A DNA stretch of 26,935 bases from Pseudomonadota bacterium (GCA_043767805.1 JAYUGC010000131.1:1-26935); one strand, 5' to 3'; counted from the first letter of the stretch, positions 1,753 through 16,198 are shown. Notes: a model not told the origin generated them from the letters alone. Translations and numbers: made by a program.

Positions 1753-1754
1753 AC

Positions 1755-2780
1755 TTACCTCCCGACGACTTTCTCCGCGATTTGAATGGCGTTTAGCGCC
1801 GCTCCCACTCTCAAATTATCCGCGACGACCCAGCTCCAGAAAGCCGTGAGGCTTTGCGGATCGAGGCGAACGCGCCCGACATGCACATGATTGCTGGAGG
1901 ACAGCATCCGAGGCGTCGGGTAGTCGGACGTGGTCTGCGAGTCGTACACGATGATCTCTTCGCCGCTCTTGATGACCTTTAGCAATTCGCCGCGATCGAG
2001 CTTCTGCTTCGTCTCGACGTAAATCGCTTCCGAGTGACCGTTCAAGACGGGCACGCGGACGCAAGTCGCAGTCAGCTTAAAGCCGGGGATACGCAAGATC
2101 TTTGCCGTCTCCTGCACCATCTTCTGCTCCTCCAGGGTGAAACCATTCTCCTGAAACACGTCGACCTGGGGGACGACGTTAAAGGCGAGAGGCTGCGGGA
2201 ACTTCTTCGATTCGAAAGGCGCGGAAGGATCTTTCATGAAACCCGCGATGCCGCGGTTCAACTCTTCCATGCCGGTCAACCCGCCCCCGGAAGCCGCTTG
2301 GTAGGTGCTCACGATGACGCGGTCGATGCCGAAAGCCTTCTCTATGACGTCCAGCAGGCGCACCATCTGAATGGTCGAGCAGTTTGGGTTTGCGACGATG
2401 CCGGACTTCGGGCGGGTCTTCAAAAGATCGCCGTTTACTTGCGGCACGACCAGAGGGCTATCCGGATCCATGCGATGAGCGTTGGTGTTATCGATGACCA
2501 AGGCGCCTTGGCCCGCGGCCCGGCTCGCCCAAATCTTACTCGTGCCGGTTCCGGCCGAGAAGAAGGCGATGTCGGTCTTGGAGAAATCGAAAGTCTCGAG
2601 ATCTTCCACCACGTAGTCTTTGCCGCGGAAGGGAATCTTGGTGCCGGCCGAGCGCTTAGAGGCAACGAGCTTCATTTCCGAGAAAGTGAAGTTACGCTCC
2701 TGCATCAGCGTCATGAGCTCTTTACCGACGGCGCCCGTGGCTCCGACGATGGCGACTCTGGGGTTCATTCCGTTAAGCAT
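1755..2780 (-). CDS. asd: Aspartate-semialdehyde dehydrogenase
   Basis: GATGAVG Rossmann motif, catalytic [39 protein letters not shown]. Confidence 0.96.
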
Positions 2781-3678
2781 TTTTGACTCCTAAAGTTTTG
2801 CGCTCGGCCTTGAAAAGATCCGAGAATAATTGGGTACCGGGCTTCTTCAAGGCCACGTAACTCGAGGCGATGATGAGAAGCCCTCCGAAGACCGTCGGCA
2901 AGGCCACCGCTTCCCGGAAGAACAACACACCGAAGACGATGGTCGAGAGCGTGTAGACGTATTGCAAGATTCCGGCGACGGCCGCCTTAACCGTCTGAAG
3001 CGCTTTAAAGTACATCAAGTAGGGCACCGCGGTGTGAAAAACTCCCATGGTAACGAGGACCGCCCACTGGGTTCCGGTCAATGGCGCCGAGATATGGCTC
3101 AAGCCCACCGGGAGGAAGAGCAGAGCTCCCACGGTCGTCTGAAACAGGGTGATGGCCAAGGCTGGAAGGTCCTTTAAGTAACGGCCGAGTACCGTCACCT
3201 GCGAGAAGAGCGCCGCCGCGACCATGGCGTAGAGGCAACCGGGGTCGACGTTACTCAAATGGAGGCCCTTCGCCGCCAAGATGAAGACGACTCCCAGGAA
3301 CGAGATCCCGATGCACATGACCTGACGGACCGTTGGCGACTCCTTCAAGAACACCATGGCCGAGAGAAGCACGAAGATGGGAGCGAGGTTATAGAGCAAA
3401 ATGGAGTTCGTGATCGTGGTCGTTAATACCGCCTTGAAAAAGAAGAACCAATTGGAGGCCATGAAAAGCCCGGTGAGGCACAATAGACCCAGGGTCTTGT
3501 TCCACCGAAGCAGTCCTTTCAGGGAGCCGCGGTACAAAACGACTCCGACAATCGCCAGAGCGCCTATCCCGCAGCGAAAAAGCACGATGCTTTCCGCGGG
3601 AAGGTTCGCCCAGCGGGCGAAGGCCGCGACACTACCCAGCATCACCTGGGAAATCGTTAGCATTAAATAACCGTTCAT
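2773..3678 (-). CDS. EamA/DMT family exporter
   Basis: 301 aa with about 10 hydrophobic segments and duplicated EamA halves (APIFV...FLKE; ...FFRE..); overlaps the asd start. Confidence 0.9.
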   Translation of the reverse strand: MNGYLMLTISQVMLGSVAAFARWANLPAESIVLFRCGIGALAIVGVVLYRGSLKGLLRWNKTLGLLCLTGLFMASNWFFFFKAVLTTTITNSILLYNLAPIFVLLSAMVFLKESPTVRQVMCIGISFLGVVFILAAKGLHLSNVDPGCLYAMVAAALFSQVTVLGRYLKDLPALAITLFQTTVGALLFLPVGLSHISAPLTGTQWAVLVTMGVFHTAVPYLMYFKALQTVKAAVAGILQYVYTLSTIVFGVLFFREAVALPTVFGGLLIIASSYVALKKPGTQLFSDLFKAERKTLGVKNA

Positions 3679-3692
3679 AACTTACGTCCTAT

Positions 3693-4853
3693 TTACATTT
3701 GGATCATGGTCCGAAGAGCTTCCCCTTCGGAGAGCAGCGCGACTTCCCCCATGGTAGGCGCGCGGCTGATCGTTTCAAAAACTTGCCCAATCGCATTGAG
3801 CAGTCCCCAGTTTTCGGCGTAGGGGCTCGGCCATCCGGGGCATCCGTTCTCGATGTCCCGCTGGCGGGTATAAAGGTAGTCCGCCCATTCGGGGCACCGC
3901 GCGTGGCGGTGGTGGTAATCGTGAACCGGCAAATCGCCCGTCAAGACCGCGACCCGAATCGGAAGGTGAAAGAACGCCATCCGCGCCGTCCACTTCGCCC
4001 AAGCGCCGAGCGAATCCGTCCGAGGCACCGCCTCGCCGACAAAACGGCCCGCGGTGAGCGTGCAAATCGTTTCCTTCGGCGTCGCCCCCGCTTTAGGCAC
4101 TTTCAGCCAGAAGTGGAGTGACGAGAAGTTGAGCAAAGCCGCGACGTGATAAGGCGCGGTCAAAGGCAAAACCCAGCCCACGAGAAAACCGGTCCAGCCG
4201 CCGAGATAAGTCACCATGCCGGGCAGCGCGCTATAGAAAAGGACCGCGCTCAAGCGGCGCAAAGGCGTGCCGGTCACGAAGTTCGCGAGCAGGCGGCCTT
4301 TCATAAACTTGCCGTGGAAGCGGGGAGACACCACCGTGTAGCGGAGTTGTCTCCACAACGCTTCGACGGTCATGCCAGGTTTGAAGCCTAGCTCGAGTAA
4401 AAACTTACAATCCGGATCCACGGGCGAAGCGAGGCGCTTCGTGTGATGGATCTCGACGTGCTCGTGGTAGTACGAGTCGAAGTGATCGACCAGGATCAAG
4501 GTCGTCAAAGCTTGGCCAATCAGGCGATCGATAAGGCGATGCCCGGTCAAAGCGTAATGCGCGCACTGGTGAGCGAGCGTCACTTGAATCTTTCGCGCGG
4601 AGCCCACGAGAATAATCCAGCAAGGCAGAATGCCGACCCAAGCGACGGGTCCCACCCGAAAGAGCCAGGAGGCAGTAACGGCACTTCCGAGGAGACCCGC
4701 CAAAGCGAGAACGACGTGCCCGATACCGTTCGAGCGCCACAAGGCGTTCTGACCCTGATGGGCTTTTCCGGTGAGAAGGGTGAGGGCGGGCTGCGCCCAA
4801 CGGGGCAGCCGCCGCATTCCTTCCCGCACGTCGAGGTTAGAGGACGGGTTCAT
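3693..4853 (-). CDS. Membrane fatty-acid-desaturase-superfamily diiron enzyme (probably a small-molecule desaturase/hydroxylase)
   Basis: Three His boxes HQCAH, HVEIHH and HDYHH with intervening hydrophobic segments; ATGA overlap with the mutase S gene. Confidence 0.85.
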   Translation of the reverse strand: MNPSSNLDVREGMRRLPRWAQPALTLLTGKAHQGQNALWRSNGIGHVVLALAGLLGSAVTASWLFRVGPVAWVGILPCWIILVGSARKIQVTLAHQCAHYALTGHRLIDRLIGQALTTLILVDHFDSYYHEHVEIHHTKRLASPVDPDCKFLLELGFKPGMTVEALWRQLRYTVVSPRFHGKFMKGRLLANFVTGTPLRRLSAVLFYSALPGMVTYLGGWTGFLVGWVLPLTAPYHVAALLNFSSLHFWLKVPKAGATPKETICTLTAGRFVGEAVPRTDSLGAWAKWTARMAFFHLPIRVAVLTGDLPVHDYHHRHARCPEWADYLYTRQRDIENGCPGWPSPYAENWGLLNAIGQVFETISRAPTMGEVALLSEGEALRTMIQM

Positions 4854-5269
4854 ACCGCTCTCCGCATCCGGCGCTCTTCGCTGAGCCGGTCGAGTAAAGG
4901 AAGAATCCCGGTGTGCGAGGGCAAAACGTGATCGACGCCGAGGGAGAAAAACCGGCGAAGGTCGCTCTCCTTCTTATCTGCGCCGACCGAGAGATTGCCG
5001 CCGATCAAAACGGGGCAACGGATGTCGCCGCATTGTTTGGCATCACGCAAACCTTGGAGATCGGAAGCGGCATGGCCGTTCAACGAGCCGATGAGCATCG
5101 CTTCGGCATCCGGATGATTTCTCGCGGCCTGGGCGAACTCGGTGACCGGCGTGCAGGCGCCGAGATTAACGACCTCGAAGCCCTTTTCACGGAGCCAGAA
5201 GGCGATCATATGATTTCCGACGACGTGGGCGTCGCTCGCGGTGACGCCCAGAATGACTTTTCTTTTCAT
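4850..5269 (-). CDS. glmS: Glutamate (methylaspartate) mutase S subunit, cobalamin-binding (MamA/MutS-type)
   Basis: DAHVVG (DxHxxG), GSLNGH and IGG B12-binding motifs; 139 aa; adjacent to the E subunit; AAGGAG RBS. The symbol refers to the mutase subunit, not glucosamine synthase. Confidence 0.93.
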   Translation of the reverse strand: MKRKVILGVTASDAHVVGNHMIAFWLREKGFEVVNLGACTPVTEFAQAARNHPDAEAMLIGSLNGHAASDLQGLRDAKQCGDIRCPVLIGGNLSVGADKKESDLRRFFSLGVDHVLPSHTGILPLLDRLSEERRMRRAV

Positions 5270-5284
5270 GTCCCGCTCCTTTGG

Positions 5285-6667
5285 TTAGTCGGACAGCCTC
5301 GCCGTCCGTTGCCGATAAAAATTGCCGCTGAAATACTGAATGTCTCGAAAGACACGCTCGATGCTGTCGTTACTGGCCTTTCCAGAGCAGATGAGTCTCG
5401 AGTTGCGCTGCTTCGTCTTCTCCGAGAAAGGAAGCTTTCCCGGGTTCAGGTACCGGATGGCGCCTTTGCTGTCTCTCGCCGGAATCACTTCCGACTTCGC
5501 GTGCCGGCTCGTACTGAACGGCATATCCAACCTGCCGACTCGAAACGCTCGCGCGATGGCTTCCATTCGATTGGGCTCGGCGAGAACCGGCTCCACCAGT
5601 TCTTCGACTTCGCGCCGGATCCAGTAAGCTTCCTCTTCAACCCTTCCATCCTCTAGACTGATGAAGTCCAGCATCGGGAAGGCCGCCATCTTCGCGGTGA
5701 GTATCCCCTCGGCATTCGACATTGCATTTGGGATGCCAAAAGCTTCTTGGTTCGTTTTCGTGATGAGCTTCGTTGCCCGCCCCAGCTTCGCGGTCAGTGA
5801 GCCGTAGAAAATCAAAGAGTCGGCTTCCACGCGATCTTTTGGGAAGGCTCCCATGAACTCGTGTAGCACCGGGAACACCTCCACATCCTTGGGGAGGTAG
5901 TCCCGAGCTAGACCACGAATCGCATGGAGTGCGGCCACGTCCTGAATGAGATTGCCGCCTTGGGGGTAGGCAACGGACAGGCATTTCACTCCGGCACTCG
6001 TCGCTAAAATTGCCTCGAACAGCGTTAAGGCGAGACTGATGGAAGGGGGAACGAGGACGGCGGATAGCGTTCCGAACAACTCTCTATCGATGAGGATGCC
6101 CGCAAGCGCGAGCTCACCACAGACGCGATCGACGTAATCCCAAGCCTTTAACGACTCGAGGATAGGGACGTCTTTCGCATAGGGCAGGTTGTAACAGATG
6201 CCTCCGCCTTCGAACGAAGTTATCCCGGCCGCCACCGCGGTCTCGAAGAGGAGCCTCGCGTCCGGAGAGCCGTGGCGCACTTCCAAGGGTGCGTCCACGG
6301 ACGCTTCAAGCGCGCGGCCTTTCATCCAGCCGTGATTGACGAGGGGATATCCATTGAGTTGAGAGGGGTCTTTCTTGAGAACTTCTCCTCCCCGCTGAAA
6401 CTGTTTGAGGCGCGTGTAGGAGTCGATGGTGATGGAAAGAATGTCGGGTTGTGCCGTCTTCTCAATGTCCTGGAGTAACTGAACCATGGGCCCGTGCCCG
6501 CCGACACCGCAACGGGGCTGGAACAACAGCTTGCCATTGCGATCTGCCGCGCGAAGCACTTGGGCGACTGTAGGCTTCGTTCTCCGCCGAAGAAACGCAT
6601 TGGTCTCTTCGAACGTCGGTAGAGAGAAACCGGATTCTTGTACTAGTTGTTTTCTTTCCTCTTGCAT
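5285..6667 (-). CDS. glmE: Glutamate (methylaspartate) mutase E subunit (MamB/MutE-type)
   Basis: QPRCGV, ITIDSYTR, LNGYPLVNHG, VRHGSPDARLL, SFEGGGICYNLPY and RELFGTL motifs; ATG at 6667 is 6 nt from GGGAG. Confidence 0.93.
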   Translation of the reverse strand: MQEERKQLVQESGFSLPTFEETNAFLRRRTKPTVAQVLRAADRNGKLLFQPRCGVGGHGPMVQLLQDIEKTAQPDILSITIDSYTRLKQFQRGGEVLKKDPSQLNGYPLVNHGWMKGRALEASVDAPLEVRHGSPDARLLFETAVAAGITSFEGGGICYNLPYAKDVPILESLKAWDYVDRVCGELALAGILIDRELFGTLSAVLVPPSISLALTLFEAILATSAGVKCLSVAYPQGGNLIQDVAALHAIRGLARDYLPKDVEVFPVLHEFMGAFPKDRVEADSLIFYGSLTAKLGRATKLITKTNQEAFGIPNAMSNAEGILTAKMAAFPMLDFISLEDGRVEEEAYWIRREVEELVEPVLAEPNRMEAIARAFRVGRLDMPFSTSRHAKSEVIPARDSKGAIRYLNPGKLPFSEKTKQRNSRLICSGKASNDSIERVFRDIQYFSGNFYRQRTARLSD

Positions 6668-6724
6668 CAACGACTCCCGGAGGGTCGCTAGAGCAAGGGT
6701 CGTGCCGAAAGATGTTTCGAGGTG

Positions 6725-7516
6725 TTACGGGAGCTCGCCGCGAGAGACGAGAACGGCTTCACCGGAGATGAAAGTGCGCTCTTCTTCGGGGCGCACGCGA
6801 ACGAATCCGCCGCGCTTGGAAGACTGATACGCGCGCATCTCGGGTTTTTTCAGTTTCTTTTTCCAGTAAGGCCCGAGGAGGCAATGCGCGGCGCCGGTCA
6901 CGGGATCTTCATTCACGCCGATTTTAGGGCCGAAGAAGCGCGAAACGAAATCCGTTTTGCCGGTGCCTTTGGCCGTTACGATTACGGCGCGAGGCTCCAG
7001 AGCTTTCAGCTTTTCGATGTCGGGCGTGAGCAACCGGACTTTGTCTTGATTGCCGATATTGACGAGGAGAAAGCCCGCCGAATTAATGCCCACGTAGCTG
7101 GGAGCTTCGGTGAGACCGAGCGCTTCGCGAAGCCCTTTCGGCTCATCGCAAACCGTCGGCGCGAGGGTCGGAAAATCCAAGGTGATCCACGTGTCGTTCT
7201 TGCTGGCGGTGAGCCGCCCGCTCAGCGTATCGAATTGGAGTTTCTGATTGCCGGGAACGATGCCTTCGCTCCAGAGCACGAAGGCCGAGGCGAGAGTCGC
7301 ATGCCCACAAAGATCGATTTCGATCGTGGGGGTGAACCAGCGCAGGCCCCACGATCCGGCTTCCTTTTTCAGGAAGGCGGTCTCCGAGAGATTCATCTCG
7401 GCGGCGACCTTTTGCATCCACGCATCCGTCCGATTCTCATCGAGAATGACGACGGCGGCGGGGTTTCCGCGGTTGGCTTCCTTGGTAAAGGCATCGACCA
7501 GAAATAGACGGTTCAT
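6725..7516 (-). CDS. PhzF/YddE family isomerase-epimerase (DAP-epimerase fold)
   Basis: VDAFT, GNPAAV, EMNLSETAF, LRWFTP, EIDLCGHATLA, EDPVTG; ATGA overlap with the regulator stop. Confidence 0.93.
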   Translation of the reverse strand: MNRLFLVDAFTKEANRGNPAAVVILDENRTDAWMQKVAAEMNLSETAFLKKEAGSWGLRWFTPTIEIDLCGHATLASAFVLWSEGIVPGNQKLQFDTLSGRLTASKNDTWITLDFPTLAPTVCDEPKGLREALGLTEAPSYVGINSAGFLLVNIGNQDKVRLLTPDIEKLKALEPRAVIVTAKGTGKTDFVSRFFGPKIGVNEDPVTGAAHCLLGPYWKKKLKKPEMRAYQSSKRGGFVRVRPEEERTFISGEAVLVSRGELP

Positions 7517-8901
7517 GGCGTTTCTTTACGGTCTTCTCCGGCTCGATACAAGCCAAATCTCTTCATGATGGAGTGGAGCGTGCTCGGCGATATTCCGAGG
7601 CGCTGCGCCGCCTGGAATTTGTTCTTGGACGACTGAATAATCGTCTCGATGTGCTTTCTCTCTTCGGACTCGTGTTTCGTTTTTAGCTCTGTGAGAGAGA
7701 GGCTCGCCGTGACGGTCTCCGTCGAGAAAAACTTCGCGTCGAGCTGCTCGGGGGTGACCTTATCGTCTGGCGATTCGGTCAAAAGGCGATAGACCGTGTG
7801 CTCGAGCTCTCGCACGTTCCCGGGCCAGTCGTAGGTCTCGAGCTGGCGGACGGTGCGCATCAAAAACGACTTCTTGTTGCCGGTCTCTTCCGCGATTTTG
7901 CGGCAAAAGTGAGCGACCAACGGCTCGATGTCCTCGGGGCGATCTTTCAAGCGCGGTAGACAAAGGCTCAGGACGTTCAAGCGATGATAAAAATCGAGGA
8001 GGAACTCACCGCGATCGGCGCGCGCGCCGAGATCGGGCTTCGCCGCCGCAATCAAACGGAAGCGGACGTCGATCTCTTTCGCTCCACCCACGCGGCGGAT
8101 TTTCTTCTCCTGAAATACGCGCAAAAGTTTCGCTTGAGCCGTTAGGGAAAGCTGATGGATCTCGTCGAAAAAAACGGTCCCGCCGTTCGCGGTCTCGAGG
8201 ATGCCTTTCTTCTCGGCATTGGCTCCCGTGAAGGCACCTTTCTCGTAACCAAATAATTCCGATTCCAAAAGATCCGTACTGCCCTGATACGCGGCGCAGT
8301 TAATCGCAAAGAAGGGACCTTTCTTCGAATCGTGAAGCGCGCGAGCGACGAGTTCTTTACCGGTTCCGGTGTCGCCCAAAATCAAAACGTTTTGATTGTT
8401 CTCTCGGTAGAGCACCGCTTTACGAGCTAGCTCGGCGAGAGATTCGGATCGTCCCACCATGCTGATGCTCGCGATGATTTTTTCCTTCTCGGTCATCGCG
8501 AGATTCGTGTTCAGCGTGCGGTAGGTGTGATCGTACTTAAGGCACCAGTTGCGTACCGTCTTCAAAAACGTTTCGAAGTCGCCTTCCTTTTCGATGAACT
8601 CGACGGCGCCCGCGCGCCAGGTTTTCTGCATGGCGAGGCGAGAGGAATCGCCGGAATATATTAAAACGTACGCTTCCGGGTTCACGCGGCGGATGGCTTC
8701 CGCCGTTTCGGCGCCGTCCATGTCGCGCATCTGGTAATCCACGATGACCAGCGCATATTCCTGCGGGTTCTTACGGACCTTCTCGACGCCCTCCGCGCCA
8801 CTCTGGGCCGCGTGAACGGAGTAGCCGTTTCGCTCTAAGAGGAAACGGGTCGCCTGAAGATTCAGCGGGTCGTCATCGATCAGCAGTAAGCGGTACGCCA
8901 C
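7513..8901 (-). CDS. Sigma54-dependent response regulator (NtrC/AtoC-type: receiver, AAA+, Fis HTH)
   Basis: Receiver LIDDD..IVDY..YSG..IEK; Walker A GDTGTGKE; ESELFG; GAFTGA; Walker B FFDEI; WPGNVREL; HTH AAQRLGISPSTL. GTG at 8901 is preferred over TTG at 8907 on RBS spacing. Confidence 0.96.
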   Translation of the reverse strand: MAYRLLLIDDDPLNLQATRFLLERNGYSVHAAQSGAEGVEKVRKNPQEYALVIVDYQMRDMDGAETAEAIRRVNPEAYVLIYSGDSSRLAMQKTWRAGAVEFIEKEGDFETFLKTVRNWCLKYDHTYRTLNTNLAMTEKEKIIASISMVGRSESLAELARKAVLYRENNQNVLILGDTGTGKELVARALHDSKKGPFFAINCAAYQGSTDLLESELFGYEKGAFTGANAEKKGILETANGGTVFFDEIHQLSLTAQAKLLRVFQEKKIRRVGGAKEIDVRFRLIAAAKPDLGARADRGEFLLDFYHRLNVLSLCLPRLKDRPEDIEPLVAHFCRKIAEETGNKKSFLMRTVRQLETYDWPGNVRELEHTVYRLLTESPDDKVTPEQLDAKFFSTETVTASLSLTELKTKHESEERKHIETIIQSSKNKFQAAQRLGISPSTLHSIMKRFGLYRAGEDRKETP

Positions 8902-8936
8902 GTTCAACTCCCTCCCGATCGATGTCGGGAGTGAGA

Positions 8937-8945
8937 TTTATAACA
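8937..8945 (-). promoter_or_regulatory. Possible extended -10 (TGnTATAAA) promoter for the leftward operon
   Basis: Minus strand reads TGTTATAAA about 35 nt upstream of the regulator start; no good -35 element. Confidence 0.3.
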
Positions 8946-8974
8946 TTTTCGCATCGCGTGGCGTTATGGAAATC

Positions 8975-9001
8975 TGCGAAAGTTCGCAGCGAACCTTCGC
9001 A
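8975..9001. promoter_or_regulatory. Tandem palindromic boxes 1 and 2 (candidate enhancer/UAS)
   Basis: TGCGAAAGTTCGCA (8975-8988) and AGCGAACCTTCGCA (8988-9001). Confidence 0.7.
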
Positions 9002-9023
9002 AAGTTTGAGGCAAATTATGGTA

Positions 9024-9040
9024 ACCTAATGAAATTAGGT
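9024..9040. repeat. AT-rich perfect inverted repeat ACCTAAT-GAA-ATTAGGT
   Basis: 7-bp arms with a 3-nt spacer, lying between the TGCGAA boxes. Confidence 0.55.
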
Positions 9041-9073
9041 GCTTATTATTCCTATCTGGTTTTTTGGAAAATC

Positions 9074-9087
9074 TGCGAAGGTTCGCA
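9074..9087. promoter_or_regulatory. Palindromic box 3 (candidate UAS)
   Basis: TGCGAAGGTTCGCA; its left flank TGGAAAATC nearly duplicates TGGAAATC before box 1. Confidence 0.7.
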
Positions 9088-9127
9088 ATGAATCCAGGCT
9101 CGGAGGTCTTTTGAGAGCAGGGCGACT

Positions 9128-9141
9128 TGCGAAGGATCGCA
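9128..9141. promoter_or_regulatory. Palindromic box 4 (candidate UAS)
   Basis: TGCGAAGGATCGCA, one mismatch, about 85 bp upstream of the -24 element. Confidence 0.65.
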
Positions 9142-9222
9142 AAACTTACTCGGAGTTCCAGCCTGAGAGTCAAAATGGCCCCGGATTTGGGCTTGAGCCA
9201 TGCCCAGAAACTCCGAATGAGC

Positions 9223-9240
9223 CTGGCACGGTGCGTGCTT
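9223..9240 (+). promoter_or_regulatory. Sigma54 (-24/-12) promoter of the rightward operon
   Basis: CTGGCACGGTGCGTGCTT: GG at 9225-9226 and GC at 9237-9238 separated by exactly 10 nt; TGGCACG is consensus; divergent from a GAFTGA activator gene. Confidence 0.85.
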
Positions 9241-9368
9241 AGTGTCCCTCCCGAGGCTCGCAGCTGGGGCTGCTAGCTAGGCTGACTAAAAGAGGCACCT
9301 TGGCACGGTGACAAAGGAGGGCACTTTCCTCCCGCGCGCTACGGCCGAGGCAAGAGGGAGTAGTTGAG

Positions 9369-10139
9369 ATGTCGATTCAGGAATACACGCCGACCCAGGA
9401 AAAAATCTTCAAGATGGACCACCCCGAGGTGGTCTCCACGACCGCGCTTTTTCACGCCGAGGTGATGAGCCGCCAGATTTTCGAGCGCTTCGAGATCACG
9501 GCCGGGGACCAGTCTTACGAGAAAGCCGTAGCTGTGGCTGGCGCCTGGCACGCCTTTTCCGAGTTCATGCCCTGGTTTCTCTGTGAAGCTTCCGCCCGCG
9601 TGAGCAATAACCGGATTCGCCACTACGTCATCCAAACCGCCTTCGAAGAGCTCGGCATGCGCCGGGAAGACGAGATTCACCACGAGATGTTCTGGTCCGC
9701 CGCCGAAGAAGTCGGCATCGGCCGCAACGTACGCGATCGTTACAGCCGCGATCCGAAAGTGATGGGCGCCCTTCAGATGTTGCGCGAGACGATTCTCAAC
9801 ACGACCTCGGACGCCGAGATTCTCGGCCTTCTCCTGGGACTCGAGATGCCCGCGGAAGAGAACATCGATACGGTGTTCTTCTCCATGAGCTACTCGGAAG
9901 AAGCCGAGCGCCGTCTCGGCGAAACTCACTTTTTCAAGATTCATAAGATGATCGAGATCGAGCACGTACGGCTCACCATCTCGAACTATCTGCGGTTTTG
10001 CGGAACGGATAAGAGGAAGGCCCAGTACCGGACCGGCTTCGAGGCCGGCACCCATTTCTGGGACAAGTTCTGGACCGCCTGCGGAGATTTGGTCCTTCAG
10101 GAGAAGCGCGGAGGATCCACGATTGCCCGGACGGCGTGA
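9369..10139 (+). CDS. Heme-oxygenase-like diiron oxidase (HDO; iron-containing redox enzyme / CADD-PqqC-like fold)
   Basis: FEELG..x..H (EIHHEMF), LGLE, and FFKIHKMIEIEH with H-x3-E-x2-H spacing; helical 256 aa; GAGGGAG RBS. Confidence 0.8.
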   Translation: MSIQEYTPTQEKIFKMDHPEVVSTTALFHAEVMSRQIFERFEITAGDQSYEKAVAVAGAWHAFSEFMPWFLCEASARVSNNRIRHYVIQTAFEELGMRREDEIHHEMFWSAAEEVGIGRNVRDRYSRDPKVMGALQMLRETILNTTSDAEILGLLLGLEMPAEENIDTVFFSMSYSEEAERRLGETHFFKIHKMIEIEHVRLTISNYLRFCGTDKRKAQYRTGFEAGTHFWDKFWTACGDLVLQEKRGGSTIARTA

Positions 10140-11289
10140 ATTCAAGCGGCTCCTCGTCGCGGCCTTCGTGTCGCAGACGGGGAGCCATTTTCTCACTCTT
10201 TCGATCACGGCCTTCGTGTATCTTGCGTCGGACTCCGCCCCGAAGGCCGCCATGGTCTTCGTCCTTTCCTATTTGCCCTCCGTTTTGATGAGCGGCACTT
10301 TCGGCCCTTGGGTCGATAAACGCATTTCCCGCCGGTTCCTCATCGCCAACGAAATGGTTTCGATTGCGGCGAGCGTGGCTTGCGGGCTCGCGCTCTGGGC
10401 AAAAGCTCCGCTCTTCGTCCTGGGATTTTTCATCGCGCTTCGCTCGCTCTGCCTCTTTACGAGCCGGTCGGGTCTCACCAAGTGGGTGAAAACGATTTCT
10501 CCTCCCGAAGTGCAGAAGGCGCGCATTCAGCTTTTCTTTCTCACCTTTTTCTTATCGACCGGCGTGTCGGGAATTCTGGCCGCGGTCGTACTCTCGAAGC
10601 TTTCCATTTTAACCATCATTGCTTTCGACGCGGCGACGTACCTGCTCAGTGCCTTACTCCTTTCGCGCCTTCAAGAATTGCCGAAAGCCGCAAGCGGACC
10701 GGCTGCGGTGGGTTTCCCGATCACGCGTGTGCTCGCGGATCCTTTGCTTCGCCCTGCCGCCGTCTCGGTGGCCTTTTCGCAAGCGCTCTTTCAAGGCGCC
10801 TATTCGGTTTTGGTGACCTATCTTCCCGTGCATCAGCTGGGACTCGGCCTTTCGGGCGTGGGTTTCTTTCAGCTCGCCGCGACGCTCGGCATCTTGGCGG
10901 GCTTCGTCGTTAACTGGAAGTCGAAGCGCCTCGTGTCTACGGAACTTTTGGCGAACACCGCGGGAGTGGCTCTGCTTTCTCTCGCGCAGATTTCGTCGTT
11001 GCCGGCGGCCCTCGTCTCTTTCTGGGTCCTCAACTTTGCCTATGAATGCGTTTGGCTCAATAAGAGCAGTGAGTTTTTTCAGGCGATGCCAGAGAACGAG
11101 AGCGCGAGCCTTCAATTTGCACTCAACTCGGGCGCCTCTTTCCTGATGGCCATCTTCACTCTCCTTTATGCTTTCGGCATTGAAGCTTGGGGCATTGGCT
11201 CGGCGCTTCCCGCCATAGCGATCGCGGGTGGCTTGGCTTGGGCGTTTCTGCTCCTGAAGAAACCCGTCCCCGCGGAGGCTCGGCCATGA
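10123..11289 (+). CDS. MFS transporter (probable exporter)
   Basis: About 12 TM segments; motif-A-like GPWVDKRISRR; FDAATYLLSA as in DHA3/macrolide-efflux-like MFS; TTG start after GGAGG. Confidence 0.88.
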   Translation: MPGRREFKRLLVAAFVSQTGSHFLTLSITAFVYLASDSAPKAAMVFVLSYLPSVLMSGTFGPWVDKRISRRFLIANEMVSIAASVACGLALWAKAPLFVLGFFIALRSLCLFTSRSGLTKWVKTISPPEVQKARIQLFFLTFFLSTGVSGILAAVVLSKLSILTIIAFDAATYLLSALLLSRLQELPKAASGPAAVGFPITRVLADPLLRPAAVSVAFSQALFQGAYSVLVTYLPVHQLGLGLSGVGFFQLAATLGILAGFVVNWKSKRLVSTELLANTAGVALLSLAQISSLPAALVSFWVLNFAYECVWLNKSSEFFQAMPENESASLQFALNSGASFLMAIFTLLYAFGIEAWGIGSALPAIAIAGGLAWAFLLLKKPVPAEARP

Positions 11290-12533
11290 CGATTCTTTTC
11301 TTGGAGCCCAAAGGCACGGCCCTCGAAGTCATTCGAGAGGCGAAGCGCCAAGGGTATAAAGTCGTCGCGCTCGTTTGCGATCCGACGATGCTCTCCGGTA
11401 CTCCGCTCCCTTATCGCACGGCGATTGCCTCCATCGATAAGACGGTGACGCTGAAATCTTGGTCCGACTGGGAAGCGCTTCTCGCCGCCGCCAAAACTTT
11501 GAACCGAGAAGACGCGGTCAAAGGCGTCTACTTCAGTCTCGATGCGGCGGCCGTTGCGGGAACGCGCTTGAGGAAGCATTTTAAGCTTCCTTCTCCCACC
11601 CCAGAGACGATGGCTCTGGTCCTCGATAAATACCGGCTTCGCCACGCGCTACGGGAAAAGGGGCTGTCCAGTCTCATGAGCTACCGAGGCGAAGAGGCGG
11701 ACGCTTGGACTTCGTGGAAACTCAAAGGCGAAGCCTATTTCAAGCCCGTGAATGGATCGTTTAGCGCGTTCGTCGAAAAATGCGCTTCGCTGGAGGATTT
11801 GCACCGCGCCCGTAAAGCTTGGTCGTCCATGGGAGCCGAGACGCCCGCGATGCTGCGTGACTACATCGGTGCCGGTAACGGCTACCTCGTCGAAGAAGCC
11901 TTCGACGGCGAGCTGATGTCTCTCGAAGGCATTTGCGTGAACGGTGAGTACAAAGCGCTCGGGCTTACCTCGCGCATTCTGTACTCGAAGAATCCCGTCG
12001 TCGAAATGGGCTCCGTTTTTCCGTACCCTCACAAGCTCGCCGCGAAAATCCAGGAATTCGTTCAAAGGGTGCATGAAGCGGTTGGTTTTACCGAGGGCCC
12101 GAGCCACGTCGAGCTCATGGTGGATGCTTCCGGCCATATGGAAATCATCGATTTCAACGCCCGCTTCATCGGCGCGGACGTAATGCAGTCGATTAATTTT
12201 GCGCTCGGCATTAAGATTCAGGAAGCGTTGCTCGATTTCGCCGTCGGAAAGGCGCCGAAGCTCGTTTACGAGCAAAAGAAGTTTGCTTGCCTGCAATACG
12301 CCTTGCCGCCGCAGGCGCTCGAAGTGAAGACGCTCGAATTTCCCAAGGGCGACGACGTGGTCTTTCATACCGCCTATATCGAGGCCGGACAAAAAGTGGA
12401 AAGCACCGAGCGGCAAATCGATTATTTGGGCTGCTATCTCACGCTGGGCGACAGTTTTGAGGACGCGCTGGCCAGAAGCCACGCGCACCGAGAAGGTTTG
12501 ATTCTCAACGGAAAGCTGAAGGGATCGTTCTAA
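11286..12533 (+). CDS. ATP-grasp ligase (L-amino-acid ligase-like)
   Basis: DKYRLR, FKPVNGSFS, LVEEAFDGELMSLEG, GPSHVEL, IIDFNARFIG, C-terminal YLGCY. True start is ATG 11286 (ATGA overlap, GGAGG RBS), not 11187. Confidence 0.88.
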   Translation: MTILFLEPKGTALEVIREAKRQGYKVVALVCDPTMLSGTPLPYRTAIASIDKTVTLKSWSDWEALLAAAKTLNREDAVKGVYFSLDAAAVAGTRLRKHFKLPSPTPETMALVLDKYRLRHALREKGLSSLMSYRGEEADAWTSWKLKGEAYFKPVNGSFSAFVEKCASLEDLHRARKAWSSMGAETPAMLRDYIGAGNGYLVEEAFDGELMSLEGICVNGEYKALGLTSRILYSKNPVVEMGSVFPYPHKLAAKIQEFVQRVHEAVGFTEGPSHVELMVDASGHMEIIDFNARFIGADVMQSINFALGIKIQEALLDFAVGKAPKLVYEQKKFACLQYALPPQALEVKTLEFPKGDDVVFHTAYIEAGQKVESTERQIDYLGCYLTLGDSFEDALARSHAHREGLILNGKLKGSF

Positions 12534-13243
12534 TGCTGAAATCGACGTTGGTAATCGCGGGCGGAAGTCAGGGAACCGGAGCGGCCATTGCGGAAGCCGC
12601 TTTGAAGCGAGGCATGGCGGTCGCCGTCGTCGCCCGCCGTAAGGAATTTTTGGACGCGCTTCAAAAAGAGCTCGGCTCGAACGTGTCCATCCACGTGGCG
12701 GATCTTTCCGACGTCGCGGCAACGCAAAGAGCCTTTCAGGAAATCGCGGCCACCCGGCCTCCGATCCGCGCCTTGGTTAATTGCGCGGCCACCTGGTTCG
12801 GCGGCAAGACGGTCGAAGAATGGACGGCCGAGGACATGGCCAATTCTTTCAAGCTCAACTTTCTCAGTACGTTCAATCCCATTCAGGAAACCCTGAAGGC
12901 TTGGCGGAAAACCGGTGGCGAGCTCGCCATCGTCAATCTCGGGGCGACCGCCGCCTTGCGAGGGCGTCAAAAGGTATCGCCGTTCGCCGTGGCCAAGGGC
13001 GCCGTGCGCCAGTTGTCGCAGAGCTTGGCTCGTGAGCTCGGTCCCGAAGGCGTGCATGTCGCCCACGTAATTTTGGATGGTCTCATCGATAACGCCCGCA
13101 CTCGCGGGCTCAATCCTGAATTAACGCAAGACAAGTACTTGAATCTCGCCTCCATCGCGAAGTCCGTCTTGAACGTCATCGAGGAAGACAAGAGCTGCTG
13201 GACCCACGAGTGGGATCTGCGGCCCAGCGTTGAGAAGTGGTAG
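12533..13243 (+). CDS. Short-chain dehydrogenase/reductase of the FxxxK subgroup
   Basis: AGGSQGTG, NCA, GATAALRG, FAVAK in place of YxxxK, ARELGPEGVHVAHVILDG; TAATG coupling to the upstream gene. Confidence 0.9.
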   Translation: MLKSTLVIAGGSQGTGAAIAEAALKRGMAVAVVARRKEFLDALQKELGSNVSIHVADLSDVAATQRAFQEIAATRPPIRALVNCAATWFGGKTVEEWTAEDMANSFKLNFLSTFNPIQETLKAWRKTGGELAIVNLGATAALRGRQKVSPFAVAKGAVRQLSQSLARELGPEGVHVAHVILDGLIDNARTRGLNPELTQDKYLNLASIAKSVLNVIEEDKSCWTHEWDLRPSVEKW

Positions 13244-13247
13244 TTTC

Positions 13248-14420
13248 ATGAAACGCGTAATAATCAGCTTGCTGCTCCTCGCCACCGCGGCCCAAGCTGG
13301 AACGAAAACGTTCCGCGTCGGCCAGATTTTCCGCTTTCAGGACAAGTTCAATGCGACCGTGGAAGAAATGCTCGCCGGCATGGAGCTCGCGCGCCAATTT
13401 TACGAAAAGGATCACCCGAACGTTCACATCAAGTTCTCCCGCATCGGCCACGCCGCCGACGATAAACTCGTCCGTAATCAGGAGACCAATCTCGCCTCCG
13501 TCGCCGAAGCCGCTCGTGAGTTTCTGGCCACCGACATTCCCGTCGCCATCGGCGGAGAGATGAGCGATGAGTCCATCGTTTTAGGCGACCTTTTCAAAGA
13601 TCAGCATCGGGTGCTCCTGACGCCGACCTCGACCAATCCGGCCGTTACCCTGGGTAAGCCCTTCACCTTTAGGGCGTGCTTCTCCGACGAATTAGTCGCG
13701 GACCGCATGGCGGAGTACGCCGTGACTCGCTTGAAGCCTCAGGCCATTGGCGTCCTTCATAACGTCTCTTCTCCTTATACCGATTTCTTGAGCCGGCGTT
13801 TCACGGAGAGGTTTCAGGAGCTCGCGGCCAAGATTCCCGGCTACCACCCCAGAGTGGTTGTTCAGAAGTACCTTCGCCGGCACATGGATTTTTCGCCTCA
13901 GGTGAAAGCTTTTCAGGATGCCGGCATCACGCACGTGGCGGCTTTTAACCACGACATGGAAATGTTGAACTATCTCGCCTTCAGCACGAAAGCGGATTTC
14001 AATCCGCTCTATCTGACGAGCGATGGCTGGGGCTCCAATAACTATATCTTCGATCAGTTCATCAAACAGAATCCCAAAGGGGATAAGTTCGTCGTCATTC
14101 GCAATTCCTACTGGAACGAAGCTTCCCAGGCGCCGCTTGCGGTGCGTTTTCGTAAAGCTCGCTTAAAACAGACGAAAGATCTCTCGCCCTCGGCGGCGAT
14201 GGGTTTCGATACGGCTTGGATGCTCTTTCACGCCATGGATAACGCCAAAGACGCGGGCAATGCGGACTCCATCCGTGAAGCTCTCATGGCGCTCAAAGGT
14301 CTCTCTTTGGTGACGAGCCGGACGCTCAGTTTCCCGAAGGACGACAACACGCCGGTCAAAGAGCTTCATCTCTATCGTATCGACAAGCTGGGCGTTCACT
14401 TCGAGGAGACGCTCAAGTGA
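13248..14420 (+). CDS. Periplasmic ligand-binding protein, LivJ/LivK (type I, amino-acid-binding) family
   Basis: Signal peptide MKRVIISLLLLATAAQA; TPTSTNPAVT..KPFTFRACFSD, SDGW, AAMGFD, IREAL patterns; start moved to ATG 13248. Confidence 0.85.
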   Translation: MKRVIISLLLLATAAQAGTKTFRVGQIFRFQDKFNATVEEMLAGMELARQFYEKDHPNVHIKFSRIGHAADDKLVRNQETNLASVAEAAREFLATDIPVAIGGEMSDESIVLGDLFKDQHRVLLTPTSTNPAVTLGKPFTFRACFSDELVADRMAEYAVTRLKPQAIGVLHNVSSPYTDFLSRRFTERFQELAAKIPGYHPRVVVQKYLRRHMDFSPQVKAFQDAGITHVAAFNHDMEMLNYLAFSTKADFNPLYLTSDGWGSNNYIFDQFIKQNPKGDKFVVIRNSYWNEASQAPLAVRFRKARLKQTKDLSPSAAMGFDTAWMLFHAMDNAKDAGNADSIREALMALKGLSLVTSRTLSFPKDDNTPVKELHLYRIDKLGVHFEETLK

Positions 14421-16198
14421 AGCTTCCTCTCTCCAACGCCCTGAAGCGCCACCCTCTGACCTACTTCACGGTCGGTTCCATGGTGGTCCTGTTTGTGTGC
14501 GCGACCGCGACCTGCCTTTGGTTTACGAAAATTTTCCTGGAAAAAGAACGGCACCGCGCCGAGACCTCTCTGATTCAACTCAAGCAGGCGTTCGAAGTGC
14601 AGTACAACTCCATGGCGGAGGCGATGTGGACCGGAAACCACGAGGCCATCGCTTTTCACGTCGATTTGGTGACCAAGCAGCTCGGCGAGGCGAGAAGCGA
14701 AGTGTACTTAACCGACGAAACGGGCCGCTGCCTTTTGAGTCGGGGCCGCGACGGCATCCTTTCCCGCTCCTGTGACGTGCCCGCGGATTTGAAGGCCACC
14801 CAAAGCGCCGAGAAGCAGGTCCAGTACGATTCTAGCCGCGCGGCCTACGTGTACAGCGCCCCGCTTTCGGTGGGAACGGTCTCCAAGGGCTTTCTCTTCG
14901 CGGTCATCACCGATCCTTATGACTTTTACCGGGGAAGTTTGGGCTCGGTTTTCTGGAAGACCCTTCCGCCCGCCATGATCCTCGTCTTGCTCGTTTGGTT
15001 TTTGTGGCTTGGTTTGTCTCGCCGTTTCTTGCTGAGACCTTACCTCCAGCGTGAGGTTTCCCTGGAGCGGAAGATGGCTCTCGCCCAGATGGCCTCTCAA
15101 GTCGCTCACGATATCCGTTCACCGCTGAGCGCTCTTAGTATCGCCATCACCTACGCCGAAGACCTTCCCGAGGACATTCGCACCATGATTCGTAGCGCGG
15201 TGGGGCGCATTCAGGACATCGCTCAAGGCTTGCTGGAAAAGCGGCGTGAGCTCGAGTCCACGGACCCGGCCCCTGGAAAAATGCTTTCTCCCGAAGCGGA
15301 GTCCGTGCAGCTCGTCTCCGCGCTTTTAGAAAGTCTTTTGACCGAGAAGCGCGTGCGCTATGCCGAAAAGGCCGGAGTCGAGATCGAAATGCAGCTCGAC
15401 GTTTCGGCCTACGGGCTATTTGCCAAGGTGAGGCCGACTCAGTTTAAGCGCGTGCTCTCCAACCTCGTCGATAACGCGGTGGAAGCCATCGAACGAGAAG
15501 GCAAAGTTAAGATCGGCATGTCTCGAGAGGGCGATGAAGTCGTCGTGACGGTGGTCGATGACGGCCGCGGTATCCCGGAAGACGTGTTGCCGTCGCTCGG
15601 ACGCGAAGGGATGTCCTACGGAAAGCTCGGGGGCTCTGGGCTCGGCTTGTTCCACGCCTCGCAAACGGTCGCTCAGTGGCAGGGCCGGCTCGATCTCGTT
15701 TCGAAGCCGGGGAAGGGCACGGTCGTTACGCTATCTCTGCCGCGCGCCGAGACTCCGATTTGGTTTTTGACCGAGCTCCGTCTGGCCGAGGGCATGACAG
15801 TCGTCGCTCTGGACGATGACCCCTCCATTCACGGCATTTGGAAAGAGCGCCTTGGTCCTTTCGGCAATGAGCTTGTGTCTTTCGTTTCGGGCTCGGCGTT
15901 TCTCGAGTGGTACGCGACGAGAAAGCCCGCCGGCAAAGTCCTTTATCTTTTCGACTACGAGCTCCTGGGCCAGGAAGCGAACGGCCCCGAGATCATCGAG
16001 CGCTTACGTCTGGAGGACGACGCGGTACTCGTCACTAGCCGCTTCGAGGAACCGGCGGTCCTCGCTCACTGCCGCAAGCTTGGCATCCGCATTCTTCCGA
16101 AGAACCTCGCCGGCCTCATTCCCTGCCTCTCCGAGCGCCGGGCCGGGCTGGCGGCAACGTCCGCTGAGTCTGAATCTTCCGTCATTCCAGGTAGATAA
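14417..16198 (+). CDS. Membrane-bound hybrid sensor histidine kinase with C-terminal receiver
   Basis: Two TM segments flank a ~140 aa extracytoplasmic region; H-box QVAHDIRSPL; N-box SNLVDNAVEA; DDGRGI; GSGLGL; receiver ALDDD..FDYE..VTS..PK; GTGA overlap with the binding-protein gene. Confidence 0.93.
   Translation: MKLPLSNALKRHPLTYFTVGSMVVLFVCATATCLWFTKIFLEKERHRAETSLIQLKQAFEVQYNSMAEAMWTGNHEAIAFHVDLVTKQLGEARSEVYLTDETGRCLLSRGRDGILSRSCDVPADLKATQSAEKQVQYDSSRAAYVYSAPLSVGTVSKGFLFAVITDPYDFYRGSLGSVFWKTLPPAMILVLLVWFLWLGLSRRFLLRPYLQREVSLERKMALAQMASQVAHDIRSPLSALSIAITYAEDLPEDIRTMIRSAVGRIQDIAQGLLEKRRELESTDPAPGKMLSPEAESVQLVSALLESLLTEKRVRYAEKAGVEIEMQLDVSAYGLFAKVRPTQFKRVLSNLVDNAVEAIEREGKVKIGMSREGDEVVVTVVDDGRGIPEDVLPSLGREGMSYGKLGGSGLGLFHASQTVAQWQGRLDLVSKPGKGTVVTLSLPRAETPIWFLTELRLAEGMTVVALDDDPSIHGIWKERLGPFGNELVSFVSGSAFLEWYATRKPAGKVLYLFDYELLGQEANGPEIIERLRLEDDAVLVTSRFEEPAVLAHCRKLGIRILPKNLAGLIPCLSERRAGLAATSAESESSVIPGR

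Follow-up and report, generated by a model that had tools for sequence, protein, structure and literature searches.

A sensor-equipped operon predicted to oxidise, ligate, and export an amino acid in a Pseudomonadota bacterium

Organization of the Locus

This study describes a gene cassette on a stretch of 26,935 nucleotides from a Pseudomonadota bacterium (assembly GCA_043767805.1, JAYUGC010000131.1:1-26935), referred to below as the window, in which a putative diiron oxidase of the heme-oxygenase-like type (HDO) is encoded together with an MFS transporter, an ATP-grasp ligase, a short-chain dehydrogenase/reductase (SDR), a periplasmic binding protein, and a hybrid sensor histidine kinase. 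The window contains two divergent gene blocks separated by a gap of 461 nt (8908-9368). The six genes named above occupy positions 9369-16198 on the plus strand in the order given, and because they overlap or abut one another they are read from the sequence as one translationally coupled operon. No ABC permease or ATPase gene was found in this operon by a Pfam scan of the window proteins. The original prediction, made from the DNA sequence without database searches, had proposed a cassette of the HDO, MFS, and ATP-grasp genes at positions 9369-12533; all three genes lie there, but the proposed boundaries cut an operon that runs on to position 16198. The SDR, the binding protein, and the hybrid kinase, as well as the sigma-54 activator, promoter, and operators described below, had not been mentioned in it. 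A terminator scan of the window (17 sites compared with 12.0 +/- 3.7 in shuffled sequences) was uninformative. Window DNA was seen only in the DNA runs of one sediment-metagenome study.

The Heme-Oxygenase-Like Protein

The HDO gene (9369-10139, plus strand) encodes a protein of 256 amino acids whose sole Pfam match was PF14518 (E-value 1.7e-11; 44.7 bits at a cut-off of 28.9). There was no match to PF03070 (TENA_THI-4) at an E-value of 0.01 or below, no model fitted the protein in an NCBIfam scan, and the ESM Atlas returned only generic clusters labeled 'iron-containing redox enzyme'. The protein carries the motifs E93/E94...H104, E159, and H192-x3-E196-x2-H199. Residues E93, E94, H104, E159, H192, E196, and H199 are all invariant in an alignment of 26 sequences with a mean column identity of 37%, so that the diiron ligand set which the original prediction had called complete-looking is retained throughout this alignment.

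The sole credible sequence match in the PDB, and the only one with an E-value below 0.1, was BesC (0.004 using the single sequence and 8.2e-5 using the family profile). In the profile alignment all six HDO ligand positions lie opposite the ligands of BesC; the single-sequence alignment differs in that the third carboxylate of BesC lies opposite the nearly invariant E164 and not opposite E159. Structure prediction and a Foldseek search, both suggested in the original prediction, led to the same relative. The AlphaFold model calculated from the alignment (pLDDT 93.1, pTM 0.90) is all-helical with 12 helices, and its top match in the PDB was BesC (7twa; E-value 3.7e-5, TM-scores 0.66/0.74, 15-17% identity), with further matches to a TenA-like archaeal protein, UndA, PolF, CADD-like proteins, PqqC, and RohS. 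PolF, an HDO among these fold matches, was solved with L-isoleucine according to the structure titles.

The TenA-like, PqqC, and CADD structures were found at similar Foldseek TM-scores (0.55-0.70), as would suit a protein that is not an O2-activating dimetal enzyme at all, i.e., a cofactor-less TenA/PqqC-type protein or a CADD-like self-sacrificing one. We regard this as very improbable, since the six ligand positions are invariant in the family and face those of BesC in the profile alignment (a match qualified by the placement of E164 in the single-sequence alignment), and since the Pfam and PDB sequence searches led to PF14518 and BesC and not to PF03070. From its sequence the protein is classified as a ligand-complete member of the HDO superfamily in a clade of its own, and it is predicted to bind metal and activate O2. 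The family comprised 77 proteins (query included) at an E-value of 0.001 or below among 5.8 billion sequences searched; its members came almost all from metagenomes or uncultured bacteria, and no characterized member of the clade was found. The genome of the window encodes two further PF14518 proteins (G000:C182 21318-21833 and G000:C26 4475-4927, with 89 and 53 bits), both of which are unrelated to the clade of the window HDO.

The ATP-Grasp Ligase

The ATP-grasp gene (11286-12533, plus strand; PF13535, E-value 4.3e-16) encodes a protein of 415 amino acids. Its open reading frame (ORF) as listed opens at TTG 11187; the orthologs start at ATG 11286, a codon that overlaps the stop codon of the MFS gene as ATGA. 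The nearest solved relatives by both sequence and fold are L-amino-acid ligases, in keeping with the amino-acid ligase role proposed in the original prediction. The top PDB sequence match was the L-amino-acid ligase BL00235 (3vot, 1.3e-11 using phmmer), followed by others including BacD, and for the structural model (pLDDT 87.8) Foldseek placed 3vot (two chains), RizA (4wd3), and BacD (3vmm) at ranks 1-4 with TM-scores of 0.70-0.81, biotin carboxylases ranking below these ligases. The match to the LAL_C2 domain was below cut-off (18.1 versus 29.4 bits). Taken together, sequence and model place the gene product in the L-amino-acid-ligase type, and dipeptide formation is predicted.

Two motifs of this protein, D289-F-N291-A-R293 ('DFNAR') and G157-S-F-S160 ('GSFS'), had been singled out as departures from the usual ATP-grasp pattern. 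Both are present, but neither is odd within the family, because K153, P154, G157, S160, E276, D289, N291, and R293 are invariant in eight ligase orthologs and the lysine loop KPVNGSFS aligns with the near-identical KPVNGFSS of BL00235. DFNAR is best read as a fixed conservative variant, in which the second acidic Mg-ligand position is Asp (D289) and not Glu as in BL00235, and GSFS as an ordinary loop for such ligases; neither looks like decay. The window ligase shares the KPxxGxxS loop, the Mg ligand of the E276 type, and the x-N-x-R motif with BL00235 (3vot), RizA (4wd3), and BacD/YwfE (3vmm), and differs from them in D289 replacing Glu and in overall sequence (15-20% identity). In clusters of the bacilysin type the ligase is paired with an exporter.

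Transporter, Dehydrogenase, and Sensor Genes

Between the HDO and ligase genes lies a gene for an MFS transporter of 388 amino acids (10123-11289, plus strand, assuming a TTG start; PF07690, 46.4 bits at a cut-off of 33.4), which is presumed to export the ligated product. The ligase gene is followed by that of a classical SDR of 236 amino acids (12533-13243, plus strand; PF00106, E-value 2.6e-30).

The last two genes of the operon encode a putative envelope sensor. The first (13248-14420, plus strand, with the probable start codon ATG 13248) encodes a secreted LivJ-like binding protein of the Peripla_BP_6 type (PF13458), presumed to be the ligand sensor, whose N-terminus MKRVIISLLLLATAAQA (followed by G) was taken as a signal peptide as read by eye. 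The top PDB matches of its profile were branched-chain amino-acid binding proteins (3td9 with an E-value of 5.5e-35, then LivJ/LivK). The second gene (14417-16198, plus strand), which overlaps the binding-protein gene by 4 nt, encodes the sensor histidine kinase (HATPase_c, E-value 2.2e-22; HisKA), in which two transmembrane segments around a periplasmic domain of ~145 amino acids are followed by DHp and CA domains and, at the C-terminus, by a receiver. In an alignment of 12 orthologs, no variation is seen at H231, the N and G boxes, D466-468, D513, and K562, or at C105 and C119 of the periplasmic domain. The kinase is assigned to the hybrid type because its C-terminal receiver retains an invariant acidic pocket, Asp, and Lys. 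With the sigma-54 activator and promoter described below, the full set of a secreted binding protein, a hybrid kinase with a periplasmic domain, and a sigma-54 activator is present; contact between binding protein and kinase would be expected from this arrangement, as would a periplasmic ligand.

Control Region

Divergent from the HDO operon, the minus-strand gene at 7513-8907 encodes a sigma-54 enhancer-binding response regulator with a REC domain, an AAA+ sigma-54 interaction domain, and a Fis-type HTH (PF00158, 8.2e-56; PF00072, 1.3e-21; PF02954, 9e-07), and shares 4 nt with the PhzF-like gene downstream of it. A pattern search of the gap between the two gene blocks revealed four copies of a 14-bp palindrome, TGCGAA-N2-TTCGCA, at 8975-9141 (unstranded; starts at 8975, 8988, 9074, and 9128, each with 0-1 mismatch), which are presumed to be binding sites of the activator (upstream activating sequences, UAS). 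They are located about 83-250 nt upstream of a sigma-54 (-24/-12) promoter-like site, TGGCAC-N5-GTGCT (9224-9239, plus strand), which has one mismatch to TGGCAC-N5-TTGCW and lies 130 nt upstream of the HDO start. The exact palindrome occurs at two places only in the whole 4.52 Mb genome, both among these four copies, and a reversed control pattern had 0 occurrences in the same 4.52 Mb. No sigma-70-like site was found between positions 8900 and 9369, and rpoN is present in the genome of the window. Two sigma-54-like sites were found in the window as a whole, compared with 0.52 expected, and 7 of 100 shuffled sequences also reached two.

Sigma-54-like sites are also found upstream of the HDO gene in three related loci (L001, L003, and L008). 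A palindrome search upstream of HDO in the other related loci revealed no shared operator sequence, and since the palindrome is not common to these loci the operator appears to be lineage-specific. As predicted from these sites, the control region is laid out in the way usual for sigma-54 promoters that depend on an activator, in combination with a private operator.

Distribution and Conservation of the Cassette

All window proteins were compared against 26 HDO loci, comprising 12 from species-representative genomes and 14 metagenome contigs. An MFS gene directly follows HDO in 16 of these, a count that includes L036, where 42 residues precede the contig end and were seen at a looser threshold only. 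The ligase gene follows the MFS gene in every locus whose contig reaches far enough (12/12). Eleven MFS-type loci had enough sequence for the remaining genes to be scored, and in these the SDR was found in eight and the binding protein and kinase in nine; the kinase of L006 is cut by the contig end. Seven further loci (L007, L009, L010, L031, L041, L042, and L043) are of a permease type, in which an APC permease gene lies beside HDO and neither MFS nor ligase is present. Their other genes include an SDR (L007, L031, and, at 24% identity, L009), a GNAT (L009, L031), an AIG2-like protein (L041, L042), and an aminotransferase (L010), the last three being enzymes of tailoring types. The three remaining loci are two distant outgroups (L011, L012) and one contig end (L038). 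What stays constant is thus the pairing of HDO with a transporter, which is an MFS protein in loci with the ligase and a relative of an amino-acid exporter in loci without it.

The activator gene lies directly upstream of HDO in nine loci (43-51% identity), and a weaker one (29-31%) is found there in four. The set of activator, HDO, MFS, ligase, SDR, binding protein, and kinase recurs in metagenome contigs and in metagenome-assembled genomes (MAGs) titled Bdellovibrionota, Oligoflexales, Elusimicrobia, 'Deltaproteobacteria', and Polynucleobacter. Taken over all HDO loci the titles span Bdellovibrionota, Elusimicrobia, 'Deltaproteobacteria', Gammaproteobacteria, and Polynucleobacter, and the cassette appears to be mobile or horizontally spread. 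Among 40 relatives of the window's genome, true HDO orthologs were found in two (E-values 1e-79 and 4e-59), namely the genomes carrying L002 and L008, and a genome of the same genus has only a 21-bit HDO paralog. The HDO of L005 (a Polynucleobacter-titled MAG) is almost the same as those of L006 (a Bdellovibrionaceae-titled MAG) and L035 (a metagenome contig), with a branch of about 0.04, which could reflect either a recent transfer or a binning error.

The Adjacent Glutamate Mutase Operon

The second gene block continues from the activator gene as an operon on the minus strand (628-7516), annotated using Pfam and NCBIfam models. Its seven genes encode a PhzF-like protein (6725-7516), glutamate mutase E (MutE, 5285-6670), glutamate mutase S (MutS, 4850-5269), a GntB-like protein of the membrane desaturase family (3693-4853), an EamA transporter (2773-3678), an ASD paralog (1755-2780), and an Asp kinase (628-1752). 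The top NCBIfam match of the desaturase-like protein was the arginine hydroxylase GntB (1.3e-15), far under the cut-off; the protein has 28 database relatives (itself included), and among 400 other genomes of its phylum two had an ortholog. The second of the two sigma-54 promoter-like sites of the window, CGGCAC-N5-TTGCT (6692-6707, minus strand, one mismatch), lies in the 54-nt gap after the PhzF-like gene, 22 nt before the start of glutamate mutase E. Because 7 of 100 shuffled sequences reach two sites this one is not statistically secure, and as a sequence match it is suggestive only.

The gene order MutE-MutS-desaturase-like-ASD-Asp kinase is kept in two other genomes, in L051 (59-5251) and in L052 (54-5981), the latter of which adds a PhzF-like gene. 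Opposite the mutase module of L051 lie another ATP-grasp gene (27% identity over 96 residues to the window ligase) and an EamA gene, and a block for an FAD monooxygenase, LysE, a GNAT, a binding protein, and a kinase is found at 7890-13558 (G256:C16). The cytoplasmic part of this kinase is 46% identical to that of the window kinase, the periplasmic parts have no similarity, and the two binding proteins are only 22% identical.

The original prediction had connected the cassette to 3-methylaspartate and had seen two different diiron oxidases in one small cluster. In a merged pathway of this kind the mutase operon would supply a 3-methylaspartate-derived amino acid for the HDO or the ligase, and both diiron-type oxidases would act in one pathway. 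Such a connection could be read from the activator gene heading the mutase operon with its 4-nt overlap onto the PhzF-like gene, from the sigma-54-like site just upstream of the mutase gene, from the ASD gene being an extra copy (a second ASD, above cut-off, is encoded elsewhere in the genome), and from the ATP-grasp, EamA, and binding protein-kinase genes beside the module in L051. The distribution of the genes argues the other way. None of the 26 HDO loci carries any of the seven mutase-operon genes, MutE was found in none of the 40 relatives including the two with the HDO cassette, and the mutase module of L052 has no HDO within the 16 kb fetched; in addition, the site at 6692 lacks statistical security. 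For these reasons the HDO cassette is taken to work without the mutase module elsewhere, and we judge the merged pathway unlikely. The mutase operon is probably a second, independent module making an unusual glutamate- or 3-methylaspartate-derived amino acid, and its link to the HDO cassette is local at best: in the window's genome the activator gene is common to both blocks, as sigma-54 control may be.

Paralogs of the Sensor Kinase

The core of the kinase was defined as its DHp-CA-receiver part (residues 225-570) and searched for at an E-value threshold of 1e-40 or below. It was found in 22 of 41 genomes. Within the host's family 17 of 24 genomes carried it and within the sister family all four did, and no match came from the nine further families of the phylum that were sampled. 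Up to 11 copies were found per genome, with two in the window's genome. Eighteen regions around high-scoring kinase copies, a non-random sample, were retrieved, and 132 ORFs from 16 of them were annotated; L056, L058, and some flanking ORFs were left out.

A recognized solute-binding-protein gene lies directly upstream of 6 of 17 kinase copies, belonging to the Peripla_BP_6 (L060, L061, L065, L066), SBP_bac_5 (L063), or NMT1-like (L064) type; in L057 such a gene is located two genes upstream of the kinase, and L068 has a lipocalin-like gene. Within 6.5 kb of the kinase copies, ATP-grasp genes are found in four regions (L060, L065, L066, L067) and GNAT genes in two (L060, L070). Transporters near the copies are of the EamA (L064), YdcZ (a pair in L057), and MFS (L061) types, and aminotransferases, cupins, a methyltransferase, and an AurF-like diiron oxygenase are also encoded nearby. 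The run in L060 (1048-8210, G004:C80) consists of genes for an AurF-like oxygenase, an ATP-grasp protein (673 aa), a Peripla_BP_6 protein, a kinase paralog, a receiver, and a GNAT, and as annotated it follows the same logic as the window cassette with a non-homologous oxidase; the genome that carries it also has an HDO cassette (L002). For other copies the neighboring genes are unrelated, such as those for TrkAH and a deoxyhypusine-synthase-like protein (L054, L055) or housekeeping genes (L062), so the picture given by these neighborhoods is mixed. The second kinase core of the window's genome (L069, G000:C147 6527-10485) adjoins genes for a pyridoxal phosphate (PLP)-dependent decarboxylase, a sigma-54 response-regulator activator, and a phosphopantetheinyl transferase.

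Proposed Function

On balance we lean toward reading the cassette as a self-contained, horizontally spread operon that makes an oxidised amino acid or dipeptide and exports it under the control of its own sensor. The HDO would bind two metal ions, most likely iron, by its set of three His and three carboxylate ligands and would use O2 to oxidise a free L-amino acid, for which an aliphatic, branched-chain-like substrate is guessed from the partner families. The SDR, where present, would tailor the product, the ligase would join it to a second amino acid using ATP, and the MFS protein would export the resulting dipeptide; in the sister cassettes that have no ligase, it would be the free amino acid that leaves by the YjeH-like permease. 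The LivJ-like binding protein and the hybrid kinase would read a periplasmic ligand and signal to the sigma-54 activator, either directly or by a phosphorelay, and the activator, bound to the four palindromes, would fire the sigma-54 promoter of the whole operon. Metal identity, substrate, product, and direction of transport are all deduced here from family membership and gene context. In the simplest account, a common amino acid is converted to the core product by the HDO alone, and this product would then be released as such or in dipeptide form. Weak hints that the molecule is aliphatic and amino-acid-like come from the sensor, which is of the LivJ type, and from the permease, which is of the YjeH type.

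Several observations weigh against this reading. With BesC the HDO shares only 15-17% identity, which makes its reaction and substrate guesses. No activator lies within reach in 8 of the 23 transporter-carrying loci (L003, L004, L007, L008, L010, L031, L037, L041), nor was one seen in L032, L042, and L043, of which L032 and L043 have less than 1 kb of upstream DNA. L003 and L037 consist of HDO, MFS, and ligase with neither binding protein nor kinase, and the SDR is missing from L003, L004, and L037, so that sensor and SDR are not obligatory parts of the cassette. The cassette has no Hpt gene despite its hybrid kinase, with three Hpt domains encoded elsewhere in the genome. The HDO tree has a basal polytomy with unsettled bootstrap support and places permease-type loci in at least two positions, giving no firm order for the two cassette types. 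As for the transporters, the MFS protein matched the H+ antiporter subfamily TIGR00900 only weakly (43.5 bits at a cut-off of 319.6), and the three permeases scanned scored 164-187 bits against YjeH, under the cut-off of 284.

Because these two matches fall under their cut-offs, export is deduced from the family. YjeH was the top NCBIfam model in all three of the seven APC permeases that were scanned, and it belongs to an amino-acid efflux family, exporting Met, Leu, Ile, and Val (passage in PMC8140960). From sequence comparison an exporter role for the MFS protein is reasonable, as are the biochemical roles that the original prediction gave to the three genes overall.

The opposite direction of transport defines an alternative in which the cassette serves uptake and catabolism or detoxification: the sensor would see an external nutrient or toxin, the transporter would import it, HDO and SDR would degrade it, and the ATP-grasp enzyme would activate or conjugate an intermediate, in the manner of gamma-glutamylation. 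Sigma-54 two-component systems with periplasmic binding proteins often govern nutrient uptake, APC permeases are mostly importers or antiporters, the SDR and the L010 aminotransferase could be catabolic, and kinase paralogs lie beside unrelated genes (TrkAH, housekeeping) in several loci. Against this, the transporters that recur are related to amino-acid efflux families (YjeH-like, LysE, EamA, YdcZ), the L-amino-acid ligase, the GNATs, and the AIG2-like proteins are of biosynthetic or tailoring types, and the related loci have no conserved downstream catabolic genes. The strict co-variation of MFS and ligase (12/12) also fits a changed exported product better than a changed imported substrate. 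Uptake and catabolism is thus considered improbable compared with synthesis and export.

Within the synthesis and export reading, the sensor genes lie inside the very operon that the activator should switch on, and the circuit would therefore reinforce itself once triggered. This leads to a more tentative proposal, which we consider possible though rather less probable than the reading above: the secreted HDO-made non-proteinogenic amino acid, here as a dipeptide, could be a signal that is read back by the cassette's own sensor with sigma-54 positive feedback, i.e., an undescribed amino-acid autoinducer system.

Comparison with Known Systems

BesC is the 4-chloro-allylglycine synthase of Streptomyces cattleya, acts on a free amino acid, and has the same heme-oxygenase-like helical fold as the window HDO. 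The two proteins belong to different clades, with the low identity given above, so that the window HDO is not assigned to the BesC-type C-C cleaving lysine oxidases, and the neighbors of the window HDO are genes for MFS, ligase, SDR, and a two-component sensor, not Bes genes. HDOs carry out unusual amino-acid oxidations, and new clades have so far tended to bring new chemistry.

Clusters that combine an HDO with an ATP-grasp ligase are a published class making small peptides, with 1447 HDOs near an ATP-grasp gene in at least 25 cluster types, and the case of mangotoxin (MboA-MboC/D) is solved in the same work (PMC13185094, main text). As in the window, an HDO gene is co-located with ATP-grasp amino-acid ligation in the mangotoxin system, whose free-standing ligases make a small oxidised peptide (PMC13185094, main text). 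The window differs in having one ligase and not two, in having neither a flavin/Fe-S reductase partner nor an amidinotransferase-like gene, and in adding the binding protein, hybrid kinase, and sigma-54 activator.

The control circuit resembles in its layout the LuxP-LuxQ-LuxU-LuxO system of Vibrio, where a binding-protein-dependent hybrid kinase feeds a sigma-54 activator. Both systems place a binding protein beside a hybrid kinase with a periplasmic domain and employ a sigma-54 response regulator; this is a likeness of layout, and orthology is not claimed. Unlike the Lux system, the window has a LivJ-type binding protein and no Hpt gene in the cassette, and its sensor genes are located inside the operon that they would control, together with putative synthase genes.

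A search of open-access full text found no description of this HDO clade or of a ligase cluster with a built-in binding protein-kinase-sigma-54 sensor, and for glutamate mutase, aspartate kinase, and 3-methylaspartate in combination the open-access literature returned macrolactam papers only. On biosynthetic gene clusters of Bdellovibrionota, the papers listed were all surveys. The class of HDO and ATP-grasp clusters is already known, whereas the window clade and its built-in sensor were not found described; the comparison with the 25 published types is at the level of the main text of PMC13185094.

Biological Implications

The most interesting feature of the cassette is its own envelope sensor in combination with a private sigma-54 switch. 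The operon brings along everything from receptor and kinase to activator, promoter, and operators, and could therefore be transferred whole to a host with sigma-54. The two natural versions of the cassette, with and without ligase, provide a built-in experiment for finding the product. If the product is the inducer, the system would also offer a compact, ligand-specific sensor-promoter pair for engineering.

The putative autoinducer circuit may be one of many. An expanded kinase core placed behind varied binding proteins, enzymes, and efflux-type transporters would be compatible with predatory-type bacteria using several private chemical channels in parallel. If the product of the cassette is indeed its inducer, it would add a new chemical class to the signals of bacteria, and this in a phylum for which, to our knowledge, little is known about cell-to-cell signaling.

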